A stretch of DNA of 57,206 nucleotides, counting the filler, from Dugesia japonica (Eukaryota), in assembly GCA_001938525.1 (NCBI GenBank). It is 5 parts of 5 records of this genome, joined end to end, with 100 filler letters (N's around TTAATTAATTAA, not from the genome) between each part and the next. Parts side by side here need not be neighbours in the genome. Positions count along the whole stretch, not along the records: positions 1 to 11,659 come from MQRL01607266.1; 4 more parts are not named here. One strand, written 5' to 3'. Positions 1 through 43,958 of the stretch are shown one piece after another. Positions within the stretch are counted from its first letter, which is position 1, and the number at the start of each line of letters is the position of its first letter. Position numbers and translations under genes: made by a program. Under the pieces are notes generated by a model. That model saw only the letters and a program-made list of their open reading frames with translations, did no database searches and was not told the DNA's origin.

Positions 1-200
1 ATTATCAAATCACCACTTGCTATACATTAATTTAACAAATAGAACAAATGATAAAACTAACGTGGTCTGGATTCTGATCCGGAGCAAGCACGAGGTTTGA
101 ATTATCATTTCATTGATAGATGTATCCACCATAATTTTCCATTTTCGGATCAAGTAGGAAATCGTTGCATCCGGCAATGAGTAACAAGAATATTTACTTT

Positions 201-1060
201 AAATAATACCCGTTCAATGACCGTATGTCGCTTGAAAAAGAATGAATGTTGAATGAAAATTACATCGGTATTTATAGCGGTTTCTATCCACACCCCCATT
301 CCTTTCATTGGTTATTTGGAATCATACGACTTTTCTGACGTTTCCATTGGCTTGAACGTCATGTGAGCTCTTTTTATTGGTTGATATTTTTGGACTTCAA
401 ATCTATTGGTCAACCTTCAAACCCCTGTATCTTTTTTCTGAGACTTCTACCGATATTTTAACTTAAATGTTCAAAATTTCCGATTTTTTCTTGACCAGAA
501 TCATTTTAATTGCTAATTTTCTCACCAGGGTAAGTCGTTGTTTTTGCCATTTTTCATGAAATAATTATTTTTCTTTTTAAAAATAATTTATTTTAAATTC
601 ATTTTNNNNNNNNNNNNNNNNNNNNNNNNNNNNNNNNNNNNNNNNNNNNNNNNNNAATAATCTCCGTTCAATTACCGTATTTCGCTTGAAAAAGAATGAA
701 TGAAACTGAATATTGAATGAAAATTACATTGGTATTTATACCGGTTTCTATTCACACCCCATTCCTTTCATTGGTTATTTGGAATCATACGACTTTCTTG
801 ACGTTTTCATTGGCTTGAACGTCATGTGAGCTCTTTTTATTGGTTGATATTTTTGGACTTCNAATCTATTGGTCAACCTTCAAACCCCTGTATCTTTTTT
901 CTGAGACTTCTACCGATATTTTAACTTAGATTTTCAAAACCTCCGATTTTTTCTTGACCAGAATCATTTCAATTACTAATTTTCTCACCAGGGAAAGTCG
1001 TTGTTTTTGCCATTTTTGATGAAATAATTATTTTTCTTTTTAAATATAATTTATTTTAAA
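201..1060. repeat. ~400-bp direct duplication (201-605 and 656-1060) flanking an N gap
   Basis: The two copies align end to end with scattered substitutions and a small indel. This is either a real tandem duplication or two haplotypes joined at a gap. Confidence 0.8.
240..410 (-). promoter_or_regulatory. Pol II promoter-like block: four CCAAT boxes, GGGGTGTG box, TATAAATA and TCATT initiator-like repeats; second copy at ~700-855
   Basis: ATTGG at 307, 346, 376 and 405; CACACCCC at ~289-296; TATTTATA at 269-276; GAATGA repeats at 240-256. The order is correct for minus-strand transcription. Confidence 0.6.
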
Positions 1061-4000
1061 TTGTTCGAATTATTTTATTTAAATAAATAAATTATTTATT
1101 TTATTTTCTTGGTGCATCTTAATTAAGTGTTCATTTCTTTATTCCTTGATTTGGTATTAATTTAATTTCACTGTTTTCTTTATTTAATTCATTTAATTAA
1201 TATTTCGTTCTTCAAGTATTAATTCCATTTTCTTTATTTTGCCCAACGAAATAATGGTTATTCATCATCTTTCATTGTCCTGTTATAACTTATATTACTT
1301 CTTTTCTTCTTTGGTCTGTTCTTTTATGTGTGGTTTCTTGTTGTAAATTTTGGGTTTTGTTGATTATTTCGTTGNNNNNNNNNNNNNNNNNNNNNNNNNN
1401 NNTTAATTATTTCCTTCTTTCCCTGACTATGTTCTTCTTAGATCTGGATGCTTCGCTTTCTTTTTTGACGACAATTTTTTAACTTCGAGTCTTCTTGTCG
1501 CCATTTTTTATTTTCAGTACCCAGTGTTTCATCCCAACAATAATAATGATAATAATAATTATTAAAACATGAACCTACTTGTGTTATCATAAAATTAAAA
1601 CTGATAGGTTTATATGAAAAACATACTTTCACTAATAATCCAAGCAAGATTTAATTAATTATAGAAAGAATCCCGTTAGTAGTTTAATAAAGCATATAAA
1701 TAATACATGTATTTAAAATTTAAACTTACAATTAAAAGTTAATCATATTAACATGTTTTAATAAATCTTGTTTAAATTCGTTGTTTGAATTACATAAAAA
1801 ATTTTCAAATTTCAAAATTCAATTTGACTTGGTTTAGAAATTACAAATTACAACATATAAACTAAGTTTTAAAAGATGTGTAAATTTTCTTTAAGTCAAT
1901 GAAAATTTTTATAGATTTATATAAAACTTCAATAAATATCTACCAAGTTCCATTAAAAAGCTTAAAAAAATTAATACCACTTAAAAGATACATAATAAAA
2001 TTAATTGAAGGATTAAATTTTTAATTAATAATTAAATTTTTAACCTTAAATGTAACCTGAATACACACGCACTCATACATTCAAAAAAACATAACAAAAC
2101 GTACACACTTACACAAATACATTCGACCTCAAAGAAAATTGAACCTAAAGAACAATCCAACCAAATCAATGATCAACAATCGAACCACAACCAAAAAGCT
2201 TAAAATAACTGTTAAACTGTTAATCAATACTTACTGGATAAATTTTATTGTTAATTGTTATTCAATTATAATTCTTAAAAAAGTAATTTTTTTAAAATTT
2301 TATTAAATTTTATTGATATCCTTTTATCTATATTAGCTATATTAAGGCATATATAATCAAAAATATAACGATACTATATACTCGGGATTATCACAATTTT
2401 CTTCTTAAAATCAATCATAAAAACTCACGCATTGTTGATTTATTTTGGCAATTAATCCCCCAAAGTATCTCATCAATTATGTCGTTACATAATTGATTAA
2501 AATATCAAATTTCAGATAATCTCATTACACAATTGAATTAAGTTACATCAGCGATGGGAAGGGTATGCACTCAAGGTGACTCAGTGCACCAGTATGTATC
2601 TACTTGAAACATCAGTGTAATTAAATCTATACGAAGCCTTGAATGCAAACGTTTAAACTTGTATCTTGATAATCGGTTTCATTACTTATAACAAAAGTTG
2701 TTGTATGTCGAAAACTTAGTTTTCCTTATGGATCGAACTAAAATAACATTGTTTAACTAAATGAAATAATAATTAATAATTTATTATACCTGTCAAGAAC
2801 TTCCATTAACTATTTGCATTAAGAAATTTCAACTAAAAGTGGAAAGCCGACTATATGTTATATGATTGAGAATTACATAATGTGGGATTATTTCAATGTA
2901 TCTTTTTTCACGTAAAATAGGAAAAGTTGAAAAAACAGTTGAAACTGAAAATGGAAGTTCTTTCATTGGAAGAGGACCCATTACTACGATTCATTGTGAA
3001 GATAAACGAGAATATGTTTAAATGAGATGGAAAAACGATGTCTGCATTTCAAAAGAAGTGCAAGCGAATTTTCTGAAAGAAGACTTACAACTTTAATCGC
3101 TCAATGCATGATTGCGACGAATGTTTATAATTTATTTATGAATATTATATAATTGTACATTTTTTTTCTCTTTTTAGACACTAATTTCAAATGACGCAAA
3201 CTTACATGACTTAGCAATAAGACTAACGTAATATGGTTGAAGGGGATGATAACATTTATACTCCCTATTTTCAAAGAAGAAAAACAGAAACTACCCTTAA
3301 TATTAAGTTGTCTATACATAATCGATCGGTAAATTGAATATTTTGGAAGATTTAATATATTTTTTGGGCTAGAACAGGCAGAAAAAAAAAGTTTATTAAA
3401 ATCGAATAATCAAACAAAGCAAAAATAATAATGAAACAGTATCTTCATACGAGAAGAGAAAAGGAATAATTAATAATAGAAAGGTTGATAACAATAATAA
3501 AAGAAATAATCAAGAAATGGAATAAAATAATTAGTAAGGAAATAATGGCTCAAAGAAATAATTAATAAGAAAATATCGTTCGAAAAACATAATTAATAAG
3601 AGTTATCACCCGAAATAATTAAACCAAGAAAAAGCAAAATTGAAATAAAAATAATTTAATAGGATTAGAGAAAATAAAAGAAAGAATTGAAAAACAATAC
3701 CGAATAGATATAAAAGAAATGAATTACGAAAGATTCAAAAGTTAATGAAAACGAGAAATAAATTAGAGAAAATAAAAGAAATTAATGGAATTAATAAAAC
3801 GAATTAATAATCAAAAAAAATTAATTATTATTTAATAAATCTAAAAACAAGAAGCAACAACAAAAAGAAAAGAATTTCATTAAAAATCAGAACAGTGATT
3901 AAAACAAAAGTGTAAAATGCAGAACTGAATCGGGATAAGAAATACGACATGCATTATTATTTATATTTGTATAAACGTTATATTTGTCGAGATATAATAA

Positions 4001-5146
4001 AGGAATAGTATATAAATAAAATAATTTATGTAAATTAAAACAAAAGTATTATTTAATGTTAATAGAAGTAAAATTATTAGGAAAAAATAAAACCATTAAA
4101 AAGTGTATTAATAATAAATTATTATAATTAATAGATAGTAACTAATATGGTGATTATTATTATTATAAACTTATGTTATTAATGTAAGTTATAATATAAT
4201 GTCCAAAAACTAAGTTTATTATTATTTCAGTTAAATATTATTAATTTTATTATTATTAACTCGTTCAAGGTTCAGTTATTTTTTAATTATTATTACAATA
4301 AATATTATAAAATATTAAATATTAAATCCATAAAGAAAGTAGAATTTAGATAAAAATACATGATGAAAGTTTATGAAAAATTAATTTATAATTTTGTAAC
4401 TATATTAGCTTATTTATATGCGAACTGTTTTTTATTCTTCTTTATAAGTTGCCGTTCTAGAAAACGGACTTTAAAGAAAATTATTAGAGAGAGCGGCAAA
4501 AATAAATTAGCAACTATAGAATACATCGGGTGAACACATGTATTGTGAAAAAAATAGAATGAAAAATAATTTTCTATATGATTAGTGGGTGAGCAGAGCA
4601 AGATTGCACTTGCAATTTCCAGTTTTCTAAAAAAAATTGAAGTAAATTCTCCGCAATAAACGTCAAAAGTGAGGATAAAATATACTATAAAAGAAAATCA
4701 TAAAATCAAAAATTATCTCCTAAAAATTCAATTAAGTTAGCATTTGGGTTATTCATGAATTTGGTTGATTATTTGTTATTATCTAGCTAACAAAGAAACC
4801 ATCGGGGAAAACTAATCGTTACAATTGCGAGGTTGTTTGAGTAATCATCTGATTTATTGAAAGAATTAAATTTAATAATAATGAATAATATAAAGTAAAG
4901 TCTTTGAATAACGGTCAACTGGTACGATCGTGACGAATGGTTTTCCTAGTGACTGGCATCTAGGGTCATTGAACTATTGTTTCGTAATTAAGTTTATGTT
5001 TAAGCAGTGTTGTGTGAGAATACGATTCACTATTGAATCACTCGAATTGATTGATCTTCAAACAAAAACCTCAATTATTCTCAACATTATGTATACTCTT
5101 TAATTATGAATGGGATAAAGTATCCTTATTATCTTTTCATATGAAG

Positions 5147-5385
5147 ATGTCTAAACAAATCATGTACACAGATCCAATACAATCACTCAAAGAAGACGGT
5201 TGGACATTCAAAACAAAGCTACCAAACAAGACGCCAAATCTCTGGGATTCGTTAGGGCTCGATGGAACGAATTTCAAGCTCTATATATTTTATCACTCAG
5301 GATCGACTTCATCAAAAAGACCCGCAAACTGGAGCATTACGAATGGAAATTGATGACTAATTGTGAGATTGATAAAGGACAGTAA
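5147..5385 (+). CDS. Small cassette exon of unknown function, paralog of 6411-6592
   Basis: Preceded by pyrimidine tract and AG; aligns without gaps to the 6411 copy (GWTF.T....P.LWDSLG in one frame, DI......Q.A..LGF.R.R.N in the +2 frame). Confidence 0.45.
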
Positions 5386-5483
5386 TATTACAGAGTATAT
5401 ATGAAACATCAAAAGCCTAAAACCCCAACAAAAAAAAATTTTACTTATAAAATTTGTTTTCAAAATATTTGTTTAATTTACAG

Positions 5484-5656
5484 ATCAATGGAAAAGTTTA
5501 ATTTTAGATAATGAAAAATTTTACAATGAAAATTTAAAAATTTTAATTTCTGAAATAAAATTAACAGATATAAAAGTTGACGATAATGATGAAAGGGATA
5601 TGTATATTATGAAAGTCACTGAATATGAGAGGTGGTGGTTGAGTTCTCTCTACTAA
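5484..5656 (+). CDS. Small phase-1 cassette exon (QWKSLILDNEKFY...YERWWLSSLY*), unknown function
   Basis: TTAATTTACAG acceptor; open for ~57 codons in phase 1 up to TAA; has no in-frame ATG near its start, so it is absent from the ORF track. Confidence 0.4.
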
Positions 5657-6045
5657 AAGTCTTGTTACTTTATTTGTATTAGTACTATTGTTATGAGAAA
5701 TTCTTGTAACTTTCGATAAAAATATCAATTTGATTTATTGTTACAATTGAATTCTTGATTTTAAACTGATTTCGATCTAGGAATTTTATTCTCAAAATTT
5801 TGTAAATTAGATTTTATTTATACATAATATTTACATCATTATAAACTAATTTTATTATTGATAATAGCTTTGATAGTATACCCTGGAATATTTACCCTGA
5901 TTATGAATAGTAATAATAACTTTGCTGATTAATTATGCTTTGATGATGTTTTGATAGTTATTTTGTTGATAGATAACTTTGATAATATATGAATAATTTA
6001 TATTCGATTAATAGCATTGTTAATTCGAATACTTTAAATATTTAG

Positions 6046-6290
6046 AAATAATATTTCATGATGGTGTAGTATCTGAGAACAGAAGGAACATTCGTTATCA
6101 AGATGGAGCTGGATTCCTGATCGAAATTGAATTGAAAACTATATGGTGACTCAAATAGTAAAGCCTGAGACAAAACAAAATGTTTAATGAACACAAAGTA
6201 GGACTATCAACTCCATCAGAGATGACGAATGATCGATGGTCTGTTGATTTGCGAATTATAATTAAGAATAGTATCGATGAACGAAATTAG
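6046..6290 (+). pseudogene. Decayed phase-1 cassette exon (IIFHDGVVSENRRNIRYQDGAGFLIEIELKTIW*...)
   Basis: TATTTAG acceptor; GC-richer frame with a cluster of three stops in the middle. Confidence 0.3.
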
Positions 6291-6410
6291 ATTCATCAGT
6301 TCTTATCAATTGATTTAATTGTATAAACTGTTATTTGAATTAATTTATAAATGCTCGATATTAACATGTTACTAACTTAATTATGAGAAATTATTATTAC
6401 TTGTATCTAG

Positions 6411-6592
6411 ATGGCCAGACGTATGATGCAGCCAGAGACTAGGAAATCCATGAGCAAGGAAGGATAGACATTCACCACGAATCAATGTAGCAACATGCCC
6501 GTGCTCTGGGATTCACTAGGGGCAGAAAGAACTCATACAGAACACTTGTAGATCACCCAGAACCAGCTATACCAGAAAGGTATGCAGATTAA
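6411..6592 (+). pseudogene. Decayed paralog of the 5147 cassette
   Basis: TACTAAC (~6370)...TTGTATCTAG|ATG; MARRMMQPETRKSMSKEG*TFTTNQCSNMPVLWDSLGAERT; in-frame stops present. Confidence 0.45.
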
Positions 6593-7088
6593 GTAAAAGA
6601 AAAGAAACAATATACAGGATTCATTTTCCGAAATGGAGAAAAAACGAAAAGCAGATTTTAATTATATTCCCGTTGCAGAAATCTTATTAATCTTATTAGT
6701 AAGTAATGTGTTTTTGTTAATTTATGAAATTTGTTGAATAATAAAAATAATACCTGAAATTTATATTTAAATTATCTTAAATAACAAAAAGAAAAACATG
6801 AAATTTTATTATTTAATGCTTGACTCAACAGTTAATCTAGTTGCCGTTGACTTGTTTATTTTCTATTGCTGAATTTGTTTGCACTCCAAAATTACAGACG
6901 ATAGATTTTATCACTAACTTGATCACTGTATGACTGAGTCGGAAATAACCAAAAATCGATAATCATAATTAGAATATTAACATACCACAACTCGGCAACC
7001 CAGACAGGCTATCTGTATCTCCTAGATGAGGCGTGTACTTTCAAACACGCTTTAGTTACAACACTGATGAGTCCTGATGCGGTAATTA

Positions 7089-8530
7089 TTAAGTTAGCAT
7101 AATCACCAACTTTTTTCTGTTGACAATGTCAGTTCCAGCAATGATGATTAAATGAATGAAATAGCTATCAGCACCCCATAATGCATCTTGATTTTGTAGA
7201 GTTGTTTTTCTACTGTAATGACAATCAAAAGGATAAGAAGTTCTGTTTACTCTCCAACTAGCGTTAGCTGAAATCCTGCAAACGGATTCTCCTACAATCT
7301 CCTTCACTGCCACATGTCAGTAAAACCTACAATTTACTATAAATCCACCGTGAAGTAGCGTTACAAGATGAACATCAAATTACTAGTAACAACTAACGTG
7401 GAGTTTGTCATGGAATTTTCATCGATACTTTACTCTCCTGTCCAACACCAACCATTTTTCGTGAAATGGATTTATTAATATTGATTTGAATCCAATATGT
7501 CGTTGCCACTTCATATTGACATAAGGTTGTAATGACTAAAACTGTCTGGATATAATCTTCAATTATATCACTAATATAACTTTTATTAGTTTTGTTCATA
7601 CCAACAAGCTGACTAAGGATAATTGTGGAGCTATTAATTTTGCCCATGACATTATTAACGATGTCCTTGTTATCAGTAGTATTATGAGTATTAAAATTGT
7701 TTTCTTTTGTATCATTATTATTATTATTATAGTTATTATAATCGTTACTGTTATCAATATTGTCATATTTATTACGAATATTACTGATATTATTTTGCAA
7801 ACATTAACACCATTACTATTATGATTGTTATACCTATTATAATAATACGTTAATATTCTCATCATCACTAACCTGATCATCCTAATTGTCACGGATATTA
7901 TTCTGTTATTATCATCCTTATTACCATCATCATTATAATTGTTATTAACAAGAACTATCAAATTATTATGAAACGATTATGAGCATTCGTATGATTATTA
8001 TTATTAATACTATGTTCAGTATTACTGCTAATATTAACAATTTTATTATTAGAATTAGGAATATTAAGTTTATTATTATCATTAGTAGTAATGTTAATAA
8101 CATTAGTAATATCACATTTAGGATTAGCATCAATATCAGCATTTTTATTATTGTTATTGATAATATTCGTTTTATTGTTGTTATTACTGTTATTATTAGG
8201 AATGTCATTAATATTATCAGTAACATGGTTACCAGAATAAGGATCATTATTACCTCCACGGGCGTCACCATCGATCTGGTTAAATCAACACTATCAGTCC
8301 CGTTATTACGAACGCCATCAGCCGGTTACCAATTTAAGACTCATTGTTGTAGCATTGATTTGGCTATGTCTTGGTGCTTGTCGCCCATATTATTATCATC
8401 GTTATGCCTTTACGACGCGGTGTTTTTTAGCATACAGGTTATGACTCACAATACTATCAATATTACTGTTTTCACTATTAAAAAAAATCTGAGTGCCAGT
8501 ATTATCACCACCATTACCACCTCAAGGTGT
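7089..8530 (-). pseudogene. Frameshifted Asn/Asp-rich long ORF followed by a non-repetitive domain
   Basis: The minus-strand N/D/T-rich reading (GGNNDPYSGNHVTDNINDIPNNSNNN...) persists across several frameshifts into the track ORFs 7408-7800 and 7089-7313. Confidence 0.4.
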
Positions 8531-8697
8531 TAAGTCGATTCTACGATAACAGAATCATGAGCTTTATATCTATGACCGTTATCGTTAATAAACATGTTTT
8601 TACTAATACTCTGAATACCATGTACGATTAACGTTCAGTTAACGCTAATGATGCGTTTTTACGCACGAATTTTCGTTTATAAAACTTTCGAGGATTT

Positions 8698-8931
8698 ATG
8701 AGTTATGAGATAACCTTTAGATTCAGCTGGAATACTCGTGGTAATATGTACAATATCCTAAAAGATGTGCTGAATTTCATTCGACGAGATCGGAAACGAG
8801 CACGCCGAAAACAGTTAATCGGCCACCTCCTCTTTCCGACTATTATTCCCTCCCCCGACGAATTAGACTTGCAATGTTTTCTTGAGTTGTTTCCCTTCGA
8901 ATATCAAGTTGATTTGGATGAGAATCCATAA
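8698..8931 (+). CDS. 77-aa small protein with a basic NLS-like stretch (RRDRKRARRK) and an acidic C-terminus
   Basis: Intact GC-richer ORF; AATAAA at 8957. Confidence 0.4.
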   Translation: MSYEITFRFSWNTRGNMYNILKDVLNFIRRDRKRARRKQLIGHLLFPTIIPSPDELDLQCFLELFPFEYQVDLDENP

Positions 8932-9032
8932 GCTTCATTTAGATTATTTGGTGTTCAATAAAACTTCTTTTCTGATTTCTTCTCAATTAACTCTTTAATT
9001 TTATTACTATAGCTAGTTATTATTAATTTCAG

Positions 9033-9404
9033 TTTATGATGGAGTAAAAATGGGAAATATTATTGGACCGGTCAACAGGCCGAACCATTTTTAAAAGATA
9101 TAAGAACCTTCACAACCGAGATGCGGGTGTCTACGCAGACCGTTCCAACATGCCCATAGAGAAAGCGGAAGAAGAAAGGCAGTGGGACACCGATGAGCGC
9201 CAGGCTTATTATGCTTGGAATTGCCCTGATCGTATTCGTGCAGTTTACCATGCAGTTAAAACCACGCAGTCAGGCGTAAATAGTGAGCCGCGAATTATCC
9301 GGGTATGGCATGAAGTCTGTGGTAGCTATTACCACCAAACAACTGCCCCATTTTTCCAGACTAAATGCATTTGTGCAAAACAATCTGTGGAACATCCGAA
9401 ATGA
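9033..9404 (+). CDS. Small cassette exon (~120 aa, Trp/Cys/His-containing), unknown function
   Basis: TATTAATTTCAG acceptor at 9032; GC-rich ORF; one stop near its start. Confidence 0.35.
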
Positions 9405-9670
9405 GAAAAACAGCGGTAGTTCTGAGAATACTGTTACCCCGTCCGTTAATGACAATTGATTGTAATGGTTGTTCTTCCCCGACTACTTTCTTTTATTTGA
9501 TGTGAATGGAGTTAAAATATTTTTTTAACTTTCCAGTGTTAATTAAGTTAACTGAGTTGTTTGTGACACTTCGTCTTTAGGCATTTGAAAAAGAGTCATT
9601 AAGGAGGTGTTATATATTATTTAACTTATTAAATAAAGGTCATATTCAGTTATATTTTCTTTTTTATTAG

Positions 9671-10029
9671 TGCATTCCTCTTTAAATCGCTCTACGGCAC
9701 CGACTAAAACGGTAAGAGAAAGCAGTGATGATATCTCTATGACGTGGGATGTTTGCAAATTAGCTAAGCGTCGATGGGAGGCTGACACCACTGCTGCAGA
9801 AAGTAAAGTTAAGCGGTACAAAAATAAATGCATCGCTGTTAGAAAGCAAGCGGAGGCCTCCTATGCTCAAGTGAGACTCTGGAAAAATCAAATAGAATCC
9901 TTTGCGGAAATTATCCGGTCCCTCCATGACCGAGAGAATAAACTGGTTGAGGGCATCATGACACTGAGAAAAGTTATGCCATTGGAGCCATTAATGATGG
10001 ATAAGGGTACGCAAACCTCGCGACCGTAA
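9671..10029 (+). CDS. Phase-1 cassette exon encoding a ~119-aa coiled-coil-like protein; homolog at 43959
   Basis: TTTTTATTAG|TG acceptor; intact ORF; AATAAA at 10061; ungapped similarity to 43959-44242. Confidence 0.55.
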
Positions 10030-10192
10030 CGTTGTACATTTCTTTTGTTTTGTGTTTATAAATAAAAGTCATCTTCCATAGCAACATGATTTATTTTTTC
10101 ATCTAAATTGTTTAATTTACACTAATTAAATTTTTGTATCAGATTAAATCTGTTTGGAACCCTCTATTTATTAATTATTGATTATTTTATAG

Positions 10193-10485
10193 TGGCCAGG
10201 ATACAGTTACCCAACATTTTCCGAAGCTGCCATAGGCTTATACAAAAATTATTACTCGAAAGACACATCAAGCGTCAAAATGAACGAGCTCTTTTGAGGC
10301 ACGTCACCCAAAGAAACCGGTTGATTAAGAAACTAGACGTCATAGTAAAAAAGCAAAGCGAGTTGGCTTAACAGGCAAAACAAGTCCTTCTTCATAAGAT
10401 AGAGTTTTTACAGCAATACACTGCTGACCTATCTAACCGACTTGAACAAGAGATGTGGACTCGCTGGAACATCGAGGACGATTAA
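10193..10485 (+). pseudogene. Phase-1 cassette exon, coiled-coil-like (ARIQLPNIFRSCHRLIQKLLLERHIKRQNE...), with one premature TAA
   Basis: TTTTATAG|TG acceptor; ~97 codons with a single stop at ~10369; AATAAA at ~10564. Confidence 0.45.
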
Positions 10486-10902
10486 ACCGCTATTGGTTTC
10501 ATATCTGAGGAGCCTACCTAGTTGTTAGACCCGGGTGCTCTCGATTACTTGTAGATAATTAAAAATAAATGTTAATATTAGTGAATTCTTAATTTCTTTA
10601 ATAAATACAAAAAATGGAAAATAATGAACGCAAGCCAAAGGTACACGAGTGAGTACTCCAAATAAGCATTGAGATTCAACCACCTGTACTGAAGATCTAA
10701 TAAGGGACATTAGATAAATTCTTGAACGGGTCCCCTGAGGGCTTTTTTTTTCCCAGCCGCCATTTTTCTAACCCCAACTCAGGTGGAACCCCAACAATAG
10801 TATAAGTAATAAATTGTGGAGGTGAAAACAGAATAATCTCAAGATAGTAAGGGATATTTAGATCGTATTTTAATTTACATTGAATTTACCAAATTTAGAA
10901 AG

Positions 10903-11043
10903 TAATATTTTTCGGGCTATGAGGTGCATTTTATTTCTTACTGTTTCTGAAATTTTTTTTTAATTTGTACAAGAAATTCATGTGTTAGGCTCATTAATTC
11001 AAATTTTTGTTTTCGGTGCGCCTTAAATCCCGATAAATACTGT
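10903..11043. mobile_element. Small Tc1/pogo-type MITE remnant
   Basis: Imperfect inverted ends TATTTTTCGGGCTATGAGGTGCA and TGCGCCTTAAATCCCGATAAATA, followed by CTGTA. Confidence 0.4.
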
Positions 11044-11243
11044 ACATGAATAGAAAAATTAATAAAATCAAAATCAAAAATCAAAGTAAAATTTAAATTA
11101 ATAAATTTAAACTCAAAAATTATATAAATTAGTAATCAAAATATATTGTTAGACTTAGGTGCTAAGAACGGTAATTTTTATATCAAATAAATTAAAGATA
11201 GTAAATACTGTTATATCGAAACGTTTGCCTATATAAGTACAGA

Positions 11244-11322
11244 TGTTGGGCTGGAACACCAAAATTAGTTGAAATAATAAAGCAATAGAGAATAGTGAAA
11301 ATGTATAAAAAAGACGAAGAAT
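11244..11322 (+). mobile_element. Another TGTTGGG-family 5' end, truncated by a gap
   Basis: TGTTGGGCTGGAACAC followed by an A-rich leader. Confidence 0.4.
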
Positions 11323-11703
11323 NNNNNNNNNNNNNNNNNNNNNNNNNNNNNNNNNNNNCAAGAAAATTATTATTATTATTATTATGGTCATTATTATTAT
11401 GTAGTTATTATTATTATAATTATTCTGGATTGTTTAGAAAATATCGAAAAATGAAAATTGGGCGTAGAAGACCCAATTATGGTGTTACAAAAATAAAACA
11501 TATATGTAAAGAAAGGTTATGATAAATTAAATAATAAAAATAATATAATAATAATAATAATATAATAATTTATTAAAGGGGTCTTTGCGACCCAATTTCA
11601 TTATTATAATAACGCAGTATCGCGTTTAATATTAATTATTATATTTAATTAAGTCTGGTNNNNNNNNNNNNNNNNNNNNNNNNNNNNNNNNNNNNNNNNN
11701 NNN

Positions 11704-11715
11704 TTAATTAATTAA
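11704..11715. other. Artificial contig-join linker TTAATTAATTAA between N runs (also 25242-25253, 36212-36223, 46884-46895)
   Basis: The identical 12-mer has stops in all six frames and is flanked by ~44 Ns on each side, four times. Confidence 0.85.
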
Positions 11716-14700
11716 NNNNNNNNNNNNNNNNNNNNNNNNNNNNNNNNNNNNNNNNNNNNAAAAAGTTGTAAATATTGAAAAAAAGGTTGTATGTATATTT
11801 TAGGAAAAGTCAATAAGCTACATGATGATACAGGAACGTTGTATGCTAAAAATTTTAAACGAAAATTTAAAAACGGTCATTTGACCGCGCATGGTAGGTT
11901 TAGTGTTAAACAATTGATTCTAGAACATTTTTATTAAAATTATTTAAAAATTAAATTATTTAAATTAAAGTAAAATAATTTGAATTAAAATAGATAAAGT
12001 ATTTGTTTTTTCTATATATCTTTTTATGTATAAAGTTTGTTGATTTTTAACCGTTTCATTCGAACTCACCGTAAACTTTCCAGTCGAATAGTATTAATGT
12101 CTATAAATTTTGAGTTACTTTTGATATTTTCGAAAAATGTCAACAAATCCGGGAGGACGGCTGTACATATTCGTTAGGAAGCATTTTTCCCGAGAAAAAT
12201 ATTTTAACTTTGCAGTCACTTTTTCCTCCCGAGAAAAATAATACCAAATTTGAATAGATAGCTGTTATCTGTACACAGAAGTCTGAGCACTAAACTCTGA
12301 ATTTTCAGATTTTTTCACCACAAAACTTCATTTATTTATTCAAGTATTAAACTTGACGAATTTAGGTTAACATATTTAGAATCAGCGAAAGATTTTCTAT
12401 CGAATAGACAGTTTCGTGACCTATTTTGTGTAGAAATTATTTTCTCGTAAACATCCTGTGCAAAATACTGAGAAAATCAAAAATGATCGTCGTAAAATTT
12501 TGAGTCAATATATATTAAAATAACTATATGTTGTAAAAATGGAAGAAATTATTTTTAAAATTTTTGATGCTCCGGATTCCATAAATAATTGATTAAAAAA
12601 ATTTAAAATTCAATATTATTTAAACAACATGAACAGTTTGCCCAATTCTTATAAAAAATTATCATAAAAAATTTTCCCCACCATAAAAGTCTGAAAAAAT
12701 ATTGCTGCTTAAAAAGCCTAAAAAATATTACCGTTTAAAAAGCCTAAAAAAATTTTCCCAACTAAATACACAGGTAAATATCACCCCAAGTTATATAATA
12801 ATCTCGCGACGAAATTAATTAGATTATGTAATGCACACAAATGTGTGCCGCCGACTATTTACATTAGAAAAATACAAAAACTCTTATGTAATAATCCAAT
12901 GACATCATCTGGGTGGGGCTTGCTAAAAGTGTGCGTGGTGTGGAGTGCCACTATTCATTCAGTAAAAATCATATTTCGCACGTATTGGAAATACTATTTA
13001 AGAAATGGTAAATAAGCACAAATTTTAGTGAGAGTTCTGATACATTGCAGTTACGATCTTTAGAGAACAAAAGTTATAAAATCTTAAGACAGACCTTTAC
13101 CCAAAAAGGGAATCAAATTTAATTTAAATTTAGAATTGATATTTTGTAGAACAAACGAAATTAATTGTTGAAAACCCGAAACATTTTTTATAAATCATTG
13201 AAGCAGATGAAGAGTCAAGTGAACTTTTTGGTAACGGTGAGAGTATTTTGATTAAATGACAAAGCTCATTTAAGGTAGAATTATTCTCACTGCAGATTAT
13301 TGAATAACTAAAAATATTGAAATTGAAAGTTTCAGTCGGAAAGTTATCATTTATTTAAAAGCCAAAATTTTATAATTTTGCTTAATTATGATTTTAATAA
13401 AATTACAAATTTGATTAATTTGTAATTAATCACAAAAAATTAGCTGAAGAACACAAAATTACATATTACTAATTGAAATAAAAATTTATAGAGAGAGCAT
13501 TTGAGAAATTTTAAAACAGTTGCTTAATAAATAAAATGTGAAATGTATATTTAATTAGACAAATTATTTGACTGAAAATTTTTTCAAGAGTTTCATATAT
13601 TTTACATTATAGAATACGGAGTTATTTTATTTATGAATATTATTCAAATATTTTCAATAACTTCTTTAAGAATTCGCACCAATTTGAATAAAACTCGATA
13701 AAGCTCTTCGTATATTGTTATAAATATTTCATTTGATTAAAATCTAATTATTAAAATTTTTCGAATGAATGAATTTAGCTAACATTATTGGTTTCCAGCT
13801 AAAACAATTAAAAATTTATCACATTTTAAAAAAATTATAAATAAAAACTTTGTTTAAATATTCACTAATAAATTTGAAAATAATTTGAAATTGTCATGAC
13901 TGCTGAAATTTCAAATATACATATTATTGAATTGGCAAACGAAGTTATATCATTATTAATAATTTATATCATTATGTTCTTTTTATATTTAGTTTATAAC
14001 AATATATCCTGATAAAGGTGAACAGGATTTTTTCAACTTTCTTTTTGATAATCAGTCACAAATGTTTAATAAGAAAAAGTTTCTTCACCTTAAAGCAGCA
14101 AGACATGGTTCTTTATTAACGAAATTATAATTTAGCATTAAAATTATTTTCAGCTTTTGAATATGTTAAGAATCAGAAGCAATTGAATGTCAATCAATGC
14201 GAGTCGGAAATTTTTAATGATAAAGTTTATTCNGAACAAGTATAAAGATTTAATATTTTTTTAAATTAATAATCTTTTCAATATTATTAATAGTTTTTAT
14301 TATTTATTAATGATATTTTTGCGATTGGAAACCAAAAATGTTAACTAAATTCATTCTTTTCAAAATAATTTTTAATCATAAATTTTAAATATTTAATTAT
14401 AACGTTTCTTAATTATGTAAAAAGCAATTCAAGTCAATTTGAGAGAAAGAACTACTTGTATAATTTTGTATTAAATTTTATTTATGCATCATTATACTTT
14501 TACAAAAGAAACGATAAATATTTACTATTGATGTCGCATGCAAATTAGGTCTGTTAAAAGGGTTGCTATCAATCACCCGCTTTTTAGTCACCTCATTTTT
14601 GTTTTATTCGTTTATTTACTCAGGACATGATCAAGTGATCTTATTTTACTCGACATCAGTGCCTTCCGCCATCTCTCTTTCCTCCTCTTACAACTTTGGT

Positions 14701-14764: not shown

Positions 14765-17700
14765 TCTGAGTGGTTTTGAAGCGAGTTGAAATTTTGTGCT
14801 TTGGCTGGGAATTATTTTTTTTAAAAAATCTCTTTTTTGATAAATTGTTGTTCACAAATTAATCAAGAAATTAAGTTTTGGCACGAAAATTATGTGTAGT
14901 TAAAGATTTATTCAAGTATTTTTTATATAAAAATATTTATTTAGTATAAAAATTTGTAAAAGTAAATAGTAATTAAAATTTCGATAACTGTGCAAATAGT
15001 AAAAAAGCAGAAGAAGAGATCATCATGGGAAAATTAGAGAAAGTAGAAGACATAAAAGAAACGTTATCTTTAGGTGAAAAGATAGAAAGAAGAGAGCCTA
15101 TTAACGTAGTAAAGAGTTACGCTGGTGTAACACGTGGAGAACGTTTCGGAGAAAGGAGACAAAATATTTTTAGAGTTACAAAAAGATGAGAACCACAGTG
15201 TTGGACATGCCAGAGTTATGGGCATACAAAAAGAGTGTCCAAAAAATGATAATGTGGACTTGTCACAAAAAAGGGCATTTAAGTATAAATTGCCAGACAA
15301 GAAACCACCAAGATATTTTGGGTGTGGTAAGATTGGTCATATCAGAAGGATGTGCACAGAAATTGTATGCGGTAGATGTAAAAGACCAGATCACAGAGCA
15401 GAAGAATGTTATTCGAACATTAGTAAACCTAGACTAGAAGAGAGAAGATACAATTCTAAAAGCGGACAACAAACAAAAGATTGGAGTCGGACAAAACCAA
15501 TTCATACCATTTGATAAGAATTTGATGATGATAATGAAGAGAGATTTTCTATGAGCATAATTGAAAATGAAGATCCAAGAAGAGAATACCCAAAAGGCAG
15601 GACTCCATCAGTAGAGGATTGGTCGGAGCCATTCATTAAACCAGTTAACGTTTGAATATCCTCAAGAGACCGAAAAATAGGATGATACAAATTCCTAAAC
15701 AGAAAGTTTCAATGATGCGGAAGTTAACAAAGCAGAAGTGGTAGGAATAATTGAAGAGAAACAAAATGCAGAAATTTCGTATGATAAAATGTAAGGGAGA
15801 CCTAGCATTTCAGTGATGATCAAGGGTGAACAGTTTGATTGTTTGTTAGAAACAGGAGCAAGAATAAATGTGATGAGCATGAAAGGATTTGATAAACTCG
15901 GAGAAACAATGTTATAGAAAAGCGAGGAACGATTGCATATCGGAAATAACAGCTCATTGGAAACGATTGGAAAGATACGTGTCGAAGTTGTAGTTTCAGA
16001 GGTGTGCAATGAAGTAAGATTTACAATAGTAGAGAAATTAATACCAGATCTAATTGGTGGAGTGGAATTTGGAAGACAAATATAGACGGGTGAACAATTG
16101 AGAAATGCAATGGATATTCTAGAAATAAATAAAGATCATAGATTGACTGCGATTATTCAGAATAATGAATATGTATTTATGGCGGATAAATGGGACATTG
16201 AATGTAGACACTTAACGAAGTATCGAATAATCACTAAAGGAAGTCCAATCAACATAAAATCGTATCGCCAACCAATGAATCTAGAGGAATAGATTAAAGA
16301 AGCGATCAAAAATCTATATGATAATTGTTTCATCCGGAAGTGTAATTCGCAATGGAATATGCCATTAATCTGTGTTTTGAAAAAGGAAAAAAAAGATATA
16401 CGATTATGCTTAGAATTTAGACAGGTCAATACAATAACAGAAAGACAAGCTTTTCCTATGCCAAATATGGATGAAATGCTAGATGCTTTGGAAGGTACGC
16501 AGTATTTTAGCTCAATAGACTTGGGAAATGCATACTACCAAGTGGAACTCAGTGAAGATTCTCAAGAAAAGACGTCTTTTTCGACCAAACAAGGACAAAT
16601 AAAAGGAGCGATGGTTTATCTAGATGATATGCTCATATTTACTGAAACAAAGGAGCAACACTATGAAATAATCAATAAAGTATTAACAGAAATTAAGAAG
16701 GCTAGTCTTAGAGTTAATCCGGAGAAATGTCCATTCATGCGAAAGGAGATCAAATTTTTGAGACACGTTATCAGTAAAGAAGGTGTAAAAACAGATCCAA
16801 CTAAAATAGAAGCAATTAAGAACTTTGGTAAACCAAACTGCGGTAAGAAAATGAGAAGCTTTTTGGGAATTTGCAATTACTATCTCAAGTTTATTAAAGA
16901 TTATTCGAAAAAAGCTAGATTGCTGTAACAACTGTGTAGTGGGCTAAGTAACAAGATGAGCGAATGAATTAGAATGAATTAGAAGAAGTTTTTAATGGAA
17001 TGAAAGAAGCACTAATGATGTCTCCAATACTAGGTTTTCCAGATATAAATGGAGGATTTATTTTGGACACGGATGCAAGTTTCGATACGATTGGGGCATT
17101 ACTATCTCAAAAGGACAACAATGGACAAGAAAGTGTAATTTCCTATAGGTCACACGCAATGACGAGTCATGAGAAAGGATATTGTACTACACGGAAAGAA
17201 TTGCTCGCAATTTTCTACTTTTGTATTCATTCCAAACGTTACTTATATAGAAAGAGATTTATCCTGAGAACAGACAATAAAGCCATCACTTTTATGCTGA
17301 ATACCAAGAAGCCGATTACATCACAGTTTGAAACCTGGATTAATTATTTGAGAAGTTTAGATATAAATTTGAAATATAGAAAAGTATCGCTTCATACAAA
17401 TGAAGATATATTGTCAAGAAGTAAATGCGATACATGNGCACAATGTCTAATGTCACATGAAGATCCCAAAAGTGGAAAATTTAAAACAAGGATGTTAAAT
17501 ACAGTAGATAGACAAGAAAAACAAAACGAGTTTTGTGAGAATGATGAAGTAACATAGATACCTGATGAAAAAGTAGAAGTTATAATGAAGATACAACATC
17601 TTTTGTGTCATGCTGGAGCAGAAAAGGTTGCAGTGTATATGAAGCATAAATATAACGCGAAACATTTGTGGAGCAATGTACAAGAGGTTGTCCGAAGCTG

Positions 17701-18714
17701 TATAACATGCCAGAAAGCTAAAGTGTTGACAACAAAAACGAAGGAAGAAACCAAAAGGACACAGCCAGCCGAAATGTTTGAGTTATTATTTATAGATGCG
17801 TGTAGATCACTGCCTGAGACAAGAGTTCGGAAAAAGTATGTTCTCGGTATAATAGACCCATGCAATAAGTATGTAGCCTTGATAGCAATGACAATACAAG
17901 AAAATACCATACGGAAAGCAATATTGGAGAAGTGGATATTAAAATTCGGGTGTACGAGAGAAATTCGAGTTGATTGTGGAAGAGGTTTTGAGTCTAAATC
18001 ATTGAAAGATTTTGCAGGTTAACATGGCATTATCCTCAGGTTTTCGAGTCCAAATCATCATAACACAAACGGACAAATTGAGATGCAGTTTAGAACTTTG
18101 CGGGATGTGGTTAATGCAACGCTTAAAGAAAGGAAAACCTCAGATTGGGCAGATATATTGCCAGAGATAGAATTTACCTTAAATGCTATTAAACAGAAAA
18201 CTATCGAGAAAAGCCCTGCTAAAATCGTATTTGGAAAGAGAATAAGCAGAGAAAAATGGTATGAAACCAATACTCAAAGAGTGCACAAAGAACAAGAAGA
18301 AAAAATAATAACCAAAAGACAATTCGGAATCGGTGATGAGGTCTTAGTGGAAGCTGAAACAATAACCAAAATCGTTATGAAGAACCCTTTAAGATCGAGA
18401 GAAAGATTCATGACAGACGTTACATTCTTGAAGATACAAACGGAAAAAGTCTTGAAAGAAACTTAGAGAAGATCAAAAAATTTCTTAAAAGGGGGATGTG
18501 AGTGGTTTTGAAAGGAGTTGAAATATTTTTGCTTTGGTTTGGAATTATTTTTTTAAAAAAATCTCTTATTTGATAAATTGTAAATCACAAATTAATCAAG
18601 AAATTAAATTAAGTTTTGGCACGAAAATTATGTGTAGTTAAAGATTAATTCAAATATTTTTTATATTTATTTAGTTTAAAAATTTTAAAGTAAAAATTAA
18701 ATATTTTAGTAGCA
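14765..18714 (+). mobile_element. Degenerate Ty3/gypsy LTR retrotransposon (gag CCHC x2, PR, RT, RNase H, IN) with paired LTRs
   Basis: LTR copies at ~14765-14980 and ~18497-18710; PPT AAAAGGGGGA before TGTGAG. Motifs: GCGKIGHIRRMC, CGRCKRPDHRAEEC, LLETGA, IDLGNAYYQ, YLDD, DTDASF, HHNTNGQIE. Many stops and an RT deletion. Confidence 0.92.
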
Positions 18715-21983: not shown

Positions 21984-24900
21984 GATGAAAAAGACAACGA
22001 GATTAGAAAATTGGTAAAAGGCTTGGCTGAAAGTTTAGAGAATTACTCGCCGAAAGCTAAACGGCAGAAAATGACATCATCATTCCAAGATAAAGATTTT
22101 ACAATTTATTCCCTAGAGGAAATTATCGATTGTAAAAATATAATTCCATTTAACCAGTGCCTGATTGTATTAATTTTATTATTATGAAGTAATTTATAAA
22201 CATGTTATAATGATAGAATGAAATGGAAACAATAATTTATTCTAAATCAAAACTCGCTAAACCAGTTCTACTTTATGGTGCAAGGAAATGTGGGAAAACT
22301 ACTTTCATAAGATTCATCGCTCAAGTATTTGTCCAATGATTTTCATAGATAAAATTAATCATAACCACAATTCTATTTTCACAGAAATATGGTTATCAAT
22401 ATGTTTATGTGTCGAACTATCACATTGAAAATATGGTCATAGATAAGTTTGAGAAAGCTATTGAAAATATATTGGAGAGGTTTGAGTGAAATATTTATTT
22501 TTCCTTTTTAATTTTTATGTTTATCTAGGGAAATGATAAAATTCTTTTACATTTCGAATTTCATATTTATTCTGCAAAAATTGTAGATAATTTCAAATAC
22601 CAACCAATGAAAGGTAAATCGATATTTGTCAGTTAATTCTTCATTTCATATTTTCACAAAGCACCATCAAGATTCCTCATGATTTATGAAACAATCGATC
22701 CTGGACAATTGAATCAACTGACATGTTTTCCAATTTATTTTCCAAATGGTAATAAAGATGATCGACAAATGTAAGTAAATAAAACTAATAAAATTCAATA
22801 ATTTACACAAATGTTAATTAAATTACATATTAATTAAATTAAATATTAATTAAATTAAATATTAATTAAATTAAATATTAATTAAATTAAATATTAATTA
22901 AATTAAATATTTGGGTTTCAACGAGACCGGGTTCACAATATATATATTATATGTATAAATATTATAAATTTATATTATTATGTAAAGATAAACGGATTCA
23001 GGATTCTGATTCAGTTCGCTTTTCATTATTATACCTTATTTTTATTTTCATAATTTTCTCTTCCTTCATAACACTGACGACTGGTAGGACAGCTTAGTAA
23101 TCAATATAAACACAATTTGTTTTGGCAATCCTTATCCTATCCCTTCTATCCTACATTTCCAATATTGTATCATCTGTCTCCGTGGGCATTCCCATTTAAT
23201 ATGAACCTCTTTACTTCATTCCCAGCCTTCTTTACTTTTACTTTATCCAATCAGCTGGGTAATTTCACTACTGTAAATTTCACGATTATTTCCTTTTACC
23301 ACCTTCGAATAGCTTCGTACAGCGTTAATCGGCTCCTTCTCACTATCTACTTTATCCAACAGTCACAAAGTCTCCTTATTTCCTTTTATAATTTTTACTT
23401 TTCGCAACAGAATTTCTTCCTCTACTCATTTATTTTCTGCACACTGTATTTACATCTCTATGTTAACATTCTCTTGTGTAAATGCCCCATTTGCAAATAA
23501 ATAACAAACAGACAAGAAAACATTACAGAATTAATAGGGAATGACTTATAAAAAGAAGAAACAAATTGTAGCTAACAATTCACGCAAAACAGATAAAGTA
23601 CAACCAAACTAAAATTTACAATTATAAGTATAAGACAAAATCAATTTTAGTTTCTATTTATTGATGTACAGTTTTTAGAAATTATTTTTAGCAATCTTCC
23701 AATTCAGTAAAGAACAGGGGGTTTCCAAACTTTGCCTCCCATTAAAAATTAATCTAATCTTAGTGCCTCTCTTCCAGTATTTTATAAAATAATGCATGTT
23801 TTTAAATTGTGAAGAATGTATTACAAGTGCAAATAAATAAATAAGTAAAAGGATTCATATGACTATCCGTGCTGGTAAATATTTTAAATTATATATACAT
23901 GTGTACGTTATATTAAAACATTTAATGTTATTTGATGGAATTTATATAGATATATTGAAAAGTTGAAAAAAATGTACCCAGCATTGATCAATAAAAAAGG
24001 CCCAATTCTTTTTGCATGACAACGCCCGTCCACACATAGCAAAGCAAACCATGGATAAACTGAAGAGCCTAAATTATGAAATTCTGAGACACCCACCGTA
24101 CTCACCTGATCTCTCGCCAACTGATTTCCATTTATTCTAACATTTACAAAATTATTTGAATGGGAAAAGATTTGAGAACGAAGGGGTGTTAAAAAATGAA
24201 TTCGAACAGTTCCTTGCCTCCAGGTCTGCCGAATTTTATCGCATATAAATGGAAAATCTACTAACTCGTTGACATAAGTGTGTAAACGCTAATGGTTTTT
24301 ATTTTAATTAATAAATCTTTTGTTTCGGCTTTCTTATGATTTTTTAAAATTAAAGTTCAAAAACGTACAAAACTTTCTGAACAACCTAATAGATTATTTA
24401 ATTTATAAGGAGTTATAAAAATTACATTTCTATTAAAAATCTCGCTTAGAACTCCGCGTCTCCTGAGTGACGAAAAAATCTAATTTTTTACAACAATGTA
24501 TTAGATGAACAAATTTTCATACGAAAAACTTTTATACGAAACGTCTAGGTACCGTTACTTGTTAATAGCATCATTAGTATCTTCGTATTTTCTCGTTAGA
24601 TTTTCACCATTCTAAATTTTATCACTTGATGAATTTCATTATTTTCATTTGCTCTATTATTATCTTTGTTTAGTATGCTCTTATTATTTTATCAGTAAAA
24701 TAATTAATCGGTCTCGATAATTGATTGAATCGATTGAAAAGTTCTAGGTGCTATATATATATATATATATGAATCAAACGTATAATTTTTCAATATATGT
24801 TTGGAACACGGCACTACAAGATTTCAATATATTCGATATTAATTGTTAACATTTTTCATTTTTATTAATCCGGTTTAATTACAGTTATTTGGAACATTTT

Positions 24901-25173
24901 CTGTCTGGTTACGAATTAGAGAGTGAATTAACTTTTGAAATAATGGCGAAATCAACGCCCAGGTATCAAATAGGAGAAATAGAAGCCTTGTGTGAAATGC
25001 TCGTGAATAAAGCTAAACGAAATGAATCATTAAGGGGATTAATAACAGAATGCGCATTTATGAGTCTTATAAAGAGTGATAAGATAAAACATGACTTCAT
25101 TAATACAGACGACGTAAATTGGAGTGACATCGGGGGTCACGATGAAGCGAAGATCAAATTGATGAATATTATG
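21984..25173 (+). CDS. Partial type II AAA+ ATPase (CDC48/AFG2-SPATA5/PEX6 group). Exons 21984-22166, 22217-22324, 22385-22479, 22529-22613, 22662-22770, 24885-25173
   Basis: GT-AG introns; Walker A VLLYGARKCGKT; D1 lid (AKSTPRYQIGEIEALC); D2 entry motif VNWSDIGGHDEAKIKL. One 1-nt phase conflict at ~22528; truncated at the gap/linker. Confidence 0.75.
22826..22910. repeat. 16-bp AT minisatellite (ATTAATTAAATTAAAT)n
   Basis: About five tandem units visible. Confidence 0.8.
23920..24390 (+). mobile_element. Mariner 3' fragment in the AAA gene intron
   Basis: LLHDNARPH...HPPYSPDLSPTDFHLF; terminal AACTTTCTGAACAACCTAATA; stops present. Confidence 0.88.
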
Positions 25174-25297
25174 GTAAATATATAAACTTTCCTTTCTNNN
25201 NNNNNNNNNNNNNNNNNNNNNNNNNNNNNNNNNNNNNNNNNTTAATTAATTAANNNNNNNNNNNNNNNNNNNNNNNNNNNNNNNNNNNNNNNNNNNN

Positions 25298-25332
<35 letters not shown>

Positions 25333-25355
25333 CTCTAATATAGAAATATTACATA

Positions 25356-43901: not shown

Positions 43902-43958
43902 TAGATTATTTTTAATTGTGGCTAATGTTTTAAAACTTTATTATTGAATTCATTTCAG

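Follow-up and report, generated by a model that had tools for sequence, protein, structure and literature searches.

In a stretch of 57,206 nucleotides (nt) of Dugesia japonica DNA (GCA_001938525.1), referred to here as the window, we analyzed the segment 3362-10796, which an initial annotation had described as a giant element resembling a long terminal repeat (LTR) and packed with cassette exons. We found six or seven short frames arranged in a row in this segment, all on the plus strand. Six of them are solid (5147, 6411, 8693, 9033, 9671, 10193) and a seventh at 8225 is likely, whereas two previously listed cassettes (5484, 6046) are doubtful. We are confident that the row represents a real, partly decayed array of micro-genes in a repeat family. 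A second, diverged array, which is absent from the initial annotation, is located on the plus strand of a separate joined piece (43417-44599). As explanation we tentatively favor that the segment could be a solo LTR, now decayed, of a large Ty3/gypsy-type element, the small genes of which would be expressed by splicing of a shared leader to alternative last exons. Taken by itself, the classification as solo LTR appears likely.

All tests were confined to the window, which consists of five joined pieces. The segment 3362-10796 lies in the first of these and contains 0 N. Four identical 100-nt spacers (44 N, TTAATTAATTAA, 44 N) at 11660-11759, 25198-25297, 36168-36267, and 46840-46939 look like artificial joins, and features across them should not be linked. 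Coordinates of all features are given in Table 1.

Coding signals in the two arrays

The initial annotation listed eight GC-richer islands (5147, 5484, 6046, 6411, 8693, 9033, 9671, 10193), each starting right after an AG. An AG was present before all eight positions. The GC enrichment was confirmed in part: 5484 is not enriched (GC 0.17 before the AG, 0.21 after it) and 8693 lacks a GC step at its AG. A step up within 20 nt of the AG was observed at six of nine acceptors; its distance was 4 nt in cassette 2 (6411), which also carries CTAAC at position -39, 1 nt in cassette 6 (10193), and 3 nt at 43959. Within 11 nt of the stop, the GC content drops at 6411, 9671 (8 nt), 10193 (11 nt from the last stop), and 43959.

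When we counted the stops in the best plus-strand frames after the eight AGs, windows of 150, 210, and 270 nt contained 6, 10, and 15 stops. Dinucleotide shuffles of the same windows contained 14.4, 22.7, and 32.5 stops and were as open in 1, 0, and 0 of 1000 cases, a comparison that is favored by the fact that the island starts had been picked by an earlier reader. For the minus strand, 11, 21, and 28 stops were counted. When the islands were tested singly against 2000 shuffles, 9671 (2 shuffles), 5484 (6), 9033 (11, longest-frame test), and 8693 (27) passed, and 5147, 6046, 6411, and 10193 did not.

Cassettes 1 and 2 (5147/6411) are duplicates. From AG/ATG (the slash marks the putative splice boundary) to codon 46, 81 of 138 nt are identical without any gap (blastp E 4e-8). 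The mismatches are distributed over the phase-0 codon positions as 15/15/27 (binomial p 0.019) and the proportions of synonymous and nonsynonymous differences (pS, pN) were 0.57 and 0.37. These data indicate that the reading frame under which the pair evolved is phase 0, beginning at its own ATG. A similar signal was obtained for the mirror frame on the minus strand (0.62, 0.33), because third positions are shared. The suggestion that the pair is conserved in phase 1 (pS 0.42, pN 0.39 in this phase) had to be abandoned because the third-position excess sits in phase 0.

The candidate cassette at 8225 was found by a blind acceptor scan. It was matched in openness by 70 of 2000 shuffles and there is no clear GC drop at its stop. 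Cassette 5484 is considered doubtful because it shows no GC step, has no start near its AG, and borrows its acceptor from a hammerhead-bearing repeat; its start overlaps a 23-nt tandem duplication. Cassette 6046 is doubtful because there is no start near its AG and 354 of 2000 shuffles were equally open. In-frame stops are present in three of the six solid cassettes (6411, 9033, 10193) and therefore this copy is partly dead. Cassette 4 (9033) retains 118 open codons. A second plus-strand frame overlies it (9034-9459, three stops) and reads as a run of basic residues, a hydrophobic segment, and STQT; it is probably a by-product.

Between 6600 and 8200 there is a 1.6-kb gap without clear cassettes. 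An Ile-rich frame of 194 codons at 7949, the first half of which is of low complexity, was left out of the cassette count. On the minus strand, stop-poor stretches were seen beside an Asn-rich tract (6852-7803). The minus-strand frame 6852-7559 was rejected as a gene, since it had no match in Pfam or the PDB and its openness was not above that of shuffles.

Within the window, cassette 5 finds its best match other than itself in a second-array cassette (43957-44242) with a coiled-coil frame; this match was reached in 27 of 10000 shuffles, in 196 of 10000 shuffles that preserve heptads, and in 2 of 400 in the ungapped comparison. The match was not reported by tblastn. This cassette is a probable distant homologue of cassette 5, with the reservation that coiled coils match easily. 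Neither of the two second-array cassettes was accepted as an orthologue of the frame at 10195 (347 and 284 of 400). On its 5' side, the second array is cut by a minus-strand gypsy element (~40000-43417), and it is possible that the array is the 5' LTR, in antisense, of the gypsy element spanning 40000-43350. The array is closed by a 214-nt TGTTGGG..CCCAACA unit (44386-44599) without target duplication. A short TGTTA..TAACG segment preceding a TGGTG that resembles a primer-binding site (PBS) looks like the own end of the 40000-43350 gypsy.

Coding starts, candidate processing signals, and putative products

Most cassettes had been described as reading open in the same splice phase. Long phase-1 frames do exist at 5484 (56 codons), 6046 (33), 8693 (78, if its GAG is used), 9671 (118), and 10193 (58). 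However, the six solid cassettes do not share a common phase: of the four that have an ATG of their own, three use phase 0 and one uses phase 1, and the remaining two begin with TG in phase 1. Cassette 9033, which had been singled out as the exception, reads in phase 0 from an ATG of its own and is interrupted by a single early stop. A rule that appears to fit the sequences better is that the start sits at the acceptor, either as own ATG within two codons or as AG/TG in phase 1. An in-frame ATG is found in codon 1 or 2 of 5147, 6411, 8693, and 9033, and AG/TG in phase 1 at 9671 and 10193; 5484 and 6046 have neither. Altogether, an acceptor directly precedes the coding start in six of the eight islands listed before, and also at 8225 and 43959. 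A split start is needed for 10193 and 43959 because their first in-frame Met is present only at codons 87 and 26, respectively.

For the blind scan, all AGs on both strands were evaluated at three filter strengths, and sites of the arrays were compared with those of the remaining window. A start at the acceptor was observed for 7/10 array sites vs 5/61 sites elsewhere, for 8/17 vs 10/153, and for 10/35 vs 25/355. For AG/TG alone, the corresponding ratios were 3/10 vs 1/61 (p 0.008) and 3/17 vs 3/153 (p 0.014).

The stops had been reported to be often followed by AATAAA. Here, we found this signal within 60 nt for three of the eight islands (8693, 9671, 10193), compared with a background of 9-11% of positions, so that "often" was not confirmed; the signal was also present within 60 nt of the stop at 8225, 43417, and 43959. 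In the 3' cluster, the order is stop, A[AT]TAAA, and the next AG 43-132 nt farther, when the nearest-listed signals are considered.

Two peptide motifs, both of which were spotted by eye before the statistical test, were detected in the predicted products. RRDRKRARRK in cassette 3, which we take to be reminiscent of Rev, contains eight R/K in ten residues (reached in 1 of 20000 shuffles) and is the sole such match in 114408 six-frame residues. Among the same residues, DKGTQT in the tail of cassette 5 is the sole match to [DS]Kx[TVI]Q[TV] (128 of 100000 shuffles). For cassette 5, one long helix was predicted (residues 18-101) with a mean predicted local distance difference test (pLDDT) score of 86, and DKGTQT is located in the non-helical tail past this helix. 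According to the accessible part of the source, the LC8 motif is [D/S]Kx[T/V/I]Q[T/V][D/E] and such sites often flank coiled coils (PMC3078936). DKGTQT agrees with it at five of six defined positions (S at +2).

Homology searches, for which there was no positive control that the libraries cover this host, did not identify relatives of the predicted proteins. A phmmer search with 9673 against 1.84 billion proteins yielded 0 matches at E 0.001, and a word-indexed search for 9673, 9048, and 8698, limited to proteins of near length, was blank. None of the 182 and 231 pattern hits in metagenome scans and none of the 11 in a viral scan were confirmed. Of 26 frames searched in Pfam, none exceeded a curated threshold; the best match was to the BRE1 coiled coil at E 5e-5. 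In the Atlas, 9673 was placed at 0.91 to unnamed clusters with low recognition and 8698 gave nothing. The AlphaFold2 model of cassette 4 (9048) was uninformative (pLDDT 35.7). A RecA match in the PDB was rejected as the sum of repeated 2-bit stretches, and an Rfam search of 1-14000 returned a single match at chance level.

Ends of the element, alternative explanations, and neighboring features

As annotated before, CCCCAACA ends exactly at 10796. The left end was confirmed less well: TTTTGGGCTAGAACAG is present at 3362, but deviates by 3 mismatches from the family pattern. It is the sole extra match to the 16-letter terminus pattern at this stringency and is weak alone, because 1.88 hits per window are expected by chance. 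The left end is backed by the A-rich tract behind it and by the 4/5 duplication in the flanks. The A fraction of the first 500 nt behind 3362 is 0.57, compared with 0.48, 0.53, and 0.49 behind the other three termini, and a fraction of 0.54 was reached by 0.9% of 543 windows; the tract includes a tandem unit at 3520-3601. The flanks ATATT and ATAGT, between which there is no 4-bp match, are 4/5 identical, and an equally good agreement was found at 1519 of 57206 window positions (0.027). No run resembling a PBS or a polypurine tract was seen by eye in the flanks. In agreement with the initial annotation, there was no indication of transposase or pol: the reverse transcriptase (RT), RNase H, integrase, mariner, and Penelope-type proteins of the window gave no tblastn match at E<=1, and Pfam was blank for gag-pol inside 3362-10796.

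Three exact termini of the family are present in the window (1539 on the minus strand, 11244, 35272), with 0.00 expected by chance. The 16-letter pattern was drawn from these three and their fit is by construction; their mutual match is not chance. Two of them lead into promoter-like DNA rich in CCAAT boxes and facing inward (9 boxes at 1539, 5 at 35272). The repeat status of the segment has two sides: the termini recur three times exactly, and the interior has one distant relative only. An 11-mer common to the segment and the copy at 1539 was dismissed as chance level. In the copy at 1-1539 (minus strand), an A-rich tract comes after the terminus, together with a tandem unit of 450 nt (202-599 / 656-1062, 92%), beyond which lies an ATG-free stretch ending A/GTAAAT, a possible leader donor. 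At four ends of the family, the flank reads ATA and one further letter (1540-1543 ATAA, 10797-10800 ATAG, 44600-44603 ATAC, 35268-35271 ATAC), which perhaps reflects a target preference. An ATAC/ATAC duplication around 35272-44599 was rejected, since an artificial join lies between these ends.

From the previous interpretation we retain a repeat-derived element with TG..CA-type ends and same-strand frames at acceptor-like AGs, for which alternative terminal exons served by one leader are the most economical explanation; the idea of a coding leader and one splice phase shared by the cassettes is not retained. In the solo LTR that we tentatively favor, a promoter near the left end would give rise to an ATG-free leader ending in A, and each transcript would use one acceptor together with the poly(A) signal behind the chosen exon. 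After splicing, cassettes with their own ATG would need nothing further, and for the AG/TG cassettes (9671, 10193, 43959) the leader would supply the A of the start codon. Judged from its motif only, cassette 3 might encode an RNA-binding export regulator (Rev/CERV-like) that would let unspliced genomic RNA past the splice and poly(A) signals. Similarly, the motif of cassette 5 would be compatible with a coiled coil docking LC8. The complete picture of an adenovirus-like multi-gene unit, with one leader, at least six last exons, some splice-made starts, a Rev-like switch, and an LC8-docking coiled coil, is a doubtful extension of this model.

A number of observations weigh against the shared-leader LTR. 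Among 326 GC-matched windows elsewhere, 56% were equally open, because they represent old coding DNA, and 71 window sites passed a lenient filter (tract, AG, open frame). The start-at-acceptor rule was framed after the sequences had been seen, several scan sites are not independent (5146/6410, 9670/43958, 8199/8220), and at the loosest filter AG/TG alone was not significant (3/35 vs 10/355, p 0.10). Cassette 5 needs no split start because it has an in-frame Met at codon 24, near the start of its second-array homologue, and a second good acceptor into the frame of cassette 6 (10142) yields no start. The candidate donors ending in A (4669, 6699) are guesses. As to the element itself, the left end is a degenerate 3-mismatch match and as such weak; there is no CCAAT box in 3362-5150, unlike in the copies at 1539 and 35272; alignment of the 5' part with those of the sister copies was not above shuffles (3 and 4 of 40); and neither a second copy of the internal parts nor a link to gag-pol was seen in the window. 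Moreover, an LTR with several internal poly(A) signals poses a difficulty for genomic RNA. This problem would be relieved if the signals were read through, if they were used only with splicing (Rev-like control), or if the array were antisense to gag-pol.

A further point of this kind leads to an alternative that we regard as unlikely, namely that the segment is a composite of at least two nested or abutting pieces (one that stops at 5430, a scrap of Penelope type, and a 3' piece reaching to 10796), each carrying some of the array, in which the cassettes would be real without forming one LTR. CCTAAAACCCCAACA at 5416-5430, which had gone unnoticed, matches the end of the second array (44585-44599) in 14 of 15 letters (0.00 expected by chance). 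It is directly followed by a foreign repeat, which matches 51944-51964 at 21/21 positions (E 2e-5) and 52332-52378 over 48 nt (E 2e-4). The end-like 15-mer and the foreign repeat suggest a composite, with which the weak left end and the cassette-poor gap (6600-8200) are in line. However, the paralogues 5147 and 6411 straddle 5430, and the 4/5 duplication brackets 3362-10796, whereas none brackets 3362-5430.

It is improbable that the array is an operon-like unit, the precursor of which would be cut at poly(A) sites while spliced leader (SL) trans-splicing adds an AUG-ended leader at each AG. In the accessible part of the source, SL-resolved operons of flatworms are characterized by same-strand genes less than 300 nt apart with a poly(A) signal a short distance ahead of the following acceptor; the source also reports SL trans-splicing for Schmidtea mediterranea and flatworm leaders that terminate in ATG (PMC12582326). 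The stop-to-next-AG gaps in the 3' cluster (159, 101, 266, and 163 nt) are below this threshold and the phase-0 cassettes 5147, 6411, and 9033 would be in frame with such a leader. In contrast, the three AG/TG cassettes would not be in frame with a leader ending in AUG: phase 0 closes after 4, 34, and 2 codons at 9670, 10192, and 43958, their first own ATG is out of frame, and 10193 lacks an in-frame Met before codon 87.

Distinctly improbable is a non-autonomous, Ginger-like DNA transposon carrying small genes. Ginger-type transposons have TGT..ACA ends and terminal inverted repeats whose length is in the tens to hundreds of bp. The segment shares the TGT..ACA ends, and AAAAATGGCG is found ~30 nt inward of both the 10796 and the 1539 end, but the two ends of 3362-10796 are alike over ~9 nt only, there is no trace of a transposase, and the inward CCAAT/TATA promoters of the sister copies suit an LTR. 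The mechanism originally proposed, a coding leader (ATG plus one base) fused in phase 1 to each cassette, is very improbable. Five of eight long frames in phase 1 and a phase-1 donor-like AG/GTATG at 6580, near the end of 6411, speak for it; but 5147, 6411, and 9033 start from their own ATG in phase 0, there is doubt about 5484 and 6046, and the TG at three acceptors would be left unexplained. Finally, chance frames or decayed polyprotein scraps in an AT-rich repeat, which were never expressed as separate genes, are likewise very improbable; they would be consistent with the lack of library homologues, the failure of four of eight islands in single tests, and the frequency of open GC-rich windows, but hardly account for the joint strand-specific openness, the constraint in 5147/6411 from a shared AG/ATG, the two rare motifs, and the second array.

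The remainder of the window is AT-rich and contains many decayed gypsy, mariner, and Penelope-type pieces, which were labeled from translations read by eye. At 14767-18703 (plus strand), a decayed short gypsy (gag knuckles, RT, RNase H, integrase) lies within 215-nt direct repeats that are 85% alike. At 51944-52378, 25348-25499, and 37368-37398, there are inverted repeats that belong to a Penelope-type element and contain minimal hammerhead cores; the cores (CTGAAGA..CGAAA) map to 52101 (minus), 52261 (plus), and 37395 (minus). Exons at 51054-51395 and 55527-56015 (minus strand) presumably encode two FAD synthase domains, and an exon at 24850-25185 (plus strand), truncated by a join, resembles what we take to be an AAA ATPase. 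Fragments at 29916-30521 (minus) and 56632-56934 (plus) are presumably derived from mariner-type transposases.

Table 1. Location of the cassettes, termini, candidate signals, and related features in the window
Feature	Position	Strand	Remarks
Candidate target-site duplication, left copy ATATT	3357-3361	+	4/5 match to right copy
Degenerate left terminus of TGTTGGGNTGRAACAC family	3362-3377	+	3 mismatches
A-rich degenerate tandem-repeat tract	3378-3900	+	like tracts behind other three family termini
Candidate leader donor A/GTGAG (speculative)	4668-4675	+	one of six GT[AG]AG[TAG] sites in 3362-9600
Cassette 1	5145-5353	+	AG/ATG, 68 amino acids (aa), phase 0, intact; paralogue of 6411
Inner right-end-like 15-mer	5416-5430	+	unnoticed by initial annotation
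Penelope-type hammerhead-bearing repeat piece	5431-5491	+	supplies AG at 5482-5483
Doubtful cassette 5484	5482-5656	+	phase 1, 56 open codons, no start near AG, GC 0.24
Doubtful cassette 6046	6044-6290	+	80 codons, stops at 34, 37, 38; no start near AG
Cassette 2	6409-6596	+	AG/ATG, 61 codons, phase 0, stops at codons 19, 47
Candidate donor A/GTAAGT (speculative)	6698-6705	+	upstream of 3' cluster; one of two GTAAGT sites in 3362-9600
ATT-rich low-complexity tract	7660-8220		long frames there uninformative
Candidate cassette, absent from initial annotation	8219-8533	+	ATG at 8225, 102 aa, intact, AATAAA at 8587
Cassette 3	8691-8931	+	weak GAG acceptor, phase 1, own ATG 8698, 77 aa, intact, AATAAA 8957
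Arg-rich motif RRDRKRARRK	8782-8811	+	in cassette 3
Cassette 4	9031-9404	+	own ATG 9036, phase 0, 122 codons, stop at codon 4
Cassette 5	9669-10029	+	AG/TG, phase 1, 118 open codons, AATAAA at 10061
LC8-type motif DKGTQT	10000-10017	+	tail of cassette 5
Cassette 6	10191-10554	+	AG/TG, phase 1, 119 codons, stops at 59, 97, 109; AATAAA 10564
Right terminus CCCAACA	10790-10796	+	exact
Candidate target-site duplication, right copy ATAGT	10797-10801	+	directly after 10796
Family left terminus, other copy	1524-1539	-	exact; CCAAT boxes, TATA-like and TCATTC sites inside
Family left terminus, other copy	11244-11259	+	exact; stretch 11244-11322
Family left terminus, other copy	35272-35287	+	exact; five CCAAT boxes in 175 nt; stretch 35272-36167
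Second array, 5'-cut cassette	43417-43719	+	100 codons, one stop, AATAAA over stop; 57/2000 shuffles
Second array, AG/TG cassette	43957-44242	+	phase 1, 93 codons, one stop, AATAAA 44263
Second array, right terminus	44585-44599	+	14/15 match to 5416-5430

Relation to known systems and implications

In the major late unit of adenoviruses, one non-coding leader is joined to many acceptors and several poly(A) sites are used. Open reading frames (ORFs) that reach into U3 are known from mouse mammary tumor virus (sag) and foamy viruses (bel). According to the accessible part of the source, foamy viruses also have an internal promoter (PMC7828637). These are exogenous viruses with known proteins; the likeness is in layout and we do not claim sequence kinship.

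For the retroelements discussed in this section, our comparison refers to the accessible parts of the cited sources. The gypsy-like planarian Burro/GYPSM1 is defined as an element of more than 30 kb with a giant polyprotein (gag, env-like, protease-RT-RNase H-integrase, BIR, MATH), and its accessory domains are located in the ~5000-aa polyprotein or in an upstream ORF (PMC6431247). It resembles the present case as a large planarian LTR element of an AT-rich genome with accessory ORFs. However, the accessory domains described there are not small genes inside the LTR, and the two are likened by description, with no internal region here. In env of the springer subclade of Drosophila errantiviruses, the start codon is completed by splicing, with AU coming from the leader (10.1101/2023.08.03.551782). 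There, AU is supplied to a single env gene, whereas here A would be joined to TG for at least two of six or seven genes. CERV of the Caenorhabditis elegans Ty3/gypsy element Cer1 is made from a spliced mRNA and is needed to export unspliced genomic RNA (PMC10309623); it offers a parallel as a spliced accessory protein of a Ty3/gypsy element. Elements of the Drosophila MDG1 group carry sORF1 and sORF2, which encode 70-110 aa and have a poly(A) site between them (10.1101/2025.03.14.642691). Small accessory ORFs with an intervening poly(A) site are common to both systems, but the MDG1 elements have two such ORFs, located after the 5' LTR and before gag, and the accessible part of that source gives no evidence of splicing. 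Each ingredient appears to have a precedent in accessory ORFs of Burro, the split env start, CERV, or the MDG1 sORFs. We found no description of gene arrays inside planarian LTRs in the literature that we searched, including the accessible parts of PMC8532177, PMC13238120, PMC11410931, and PMC8629364; the Burro extended data, repeat libraries, and supplements may hold one.

LTRs are normally treated as non-coding. If such arrays are expressed, every solo LTR would be a ready-made multi-gene unit, and with three exact termini and two arrays in 57 kb, the termini are frequent. If our interpretation is true, it would show how a giant retroelement controls splicing, export, and transport, and it would add several new protein families that are absent from all libraries searched. 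Should the adenovirus-like reading be true, the regulatory kit of a Ty3/gypsy element would be as large as that of complex retroviruses.

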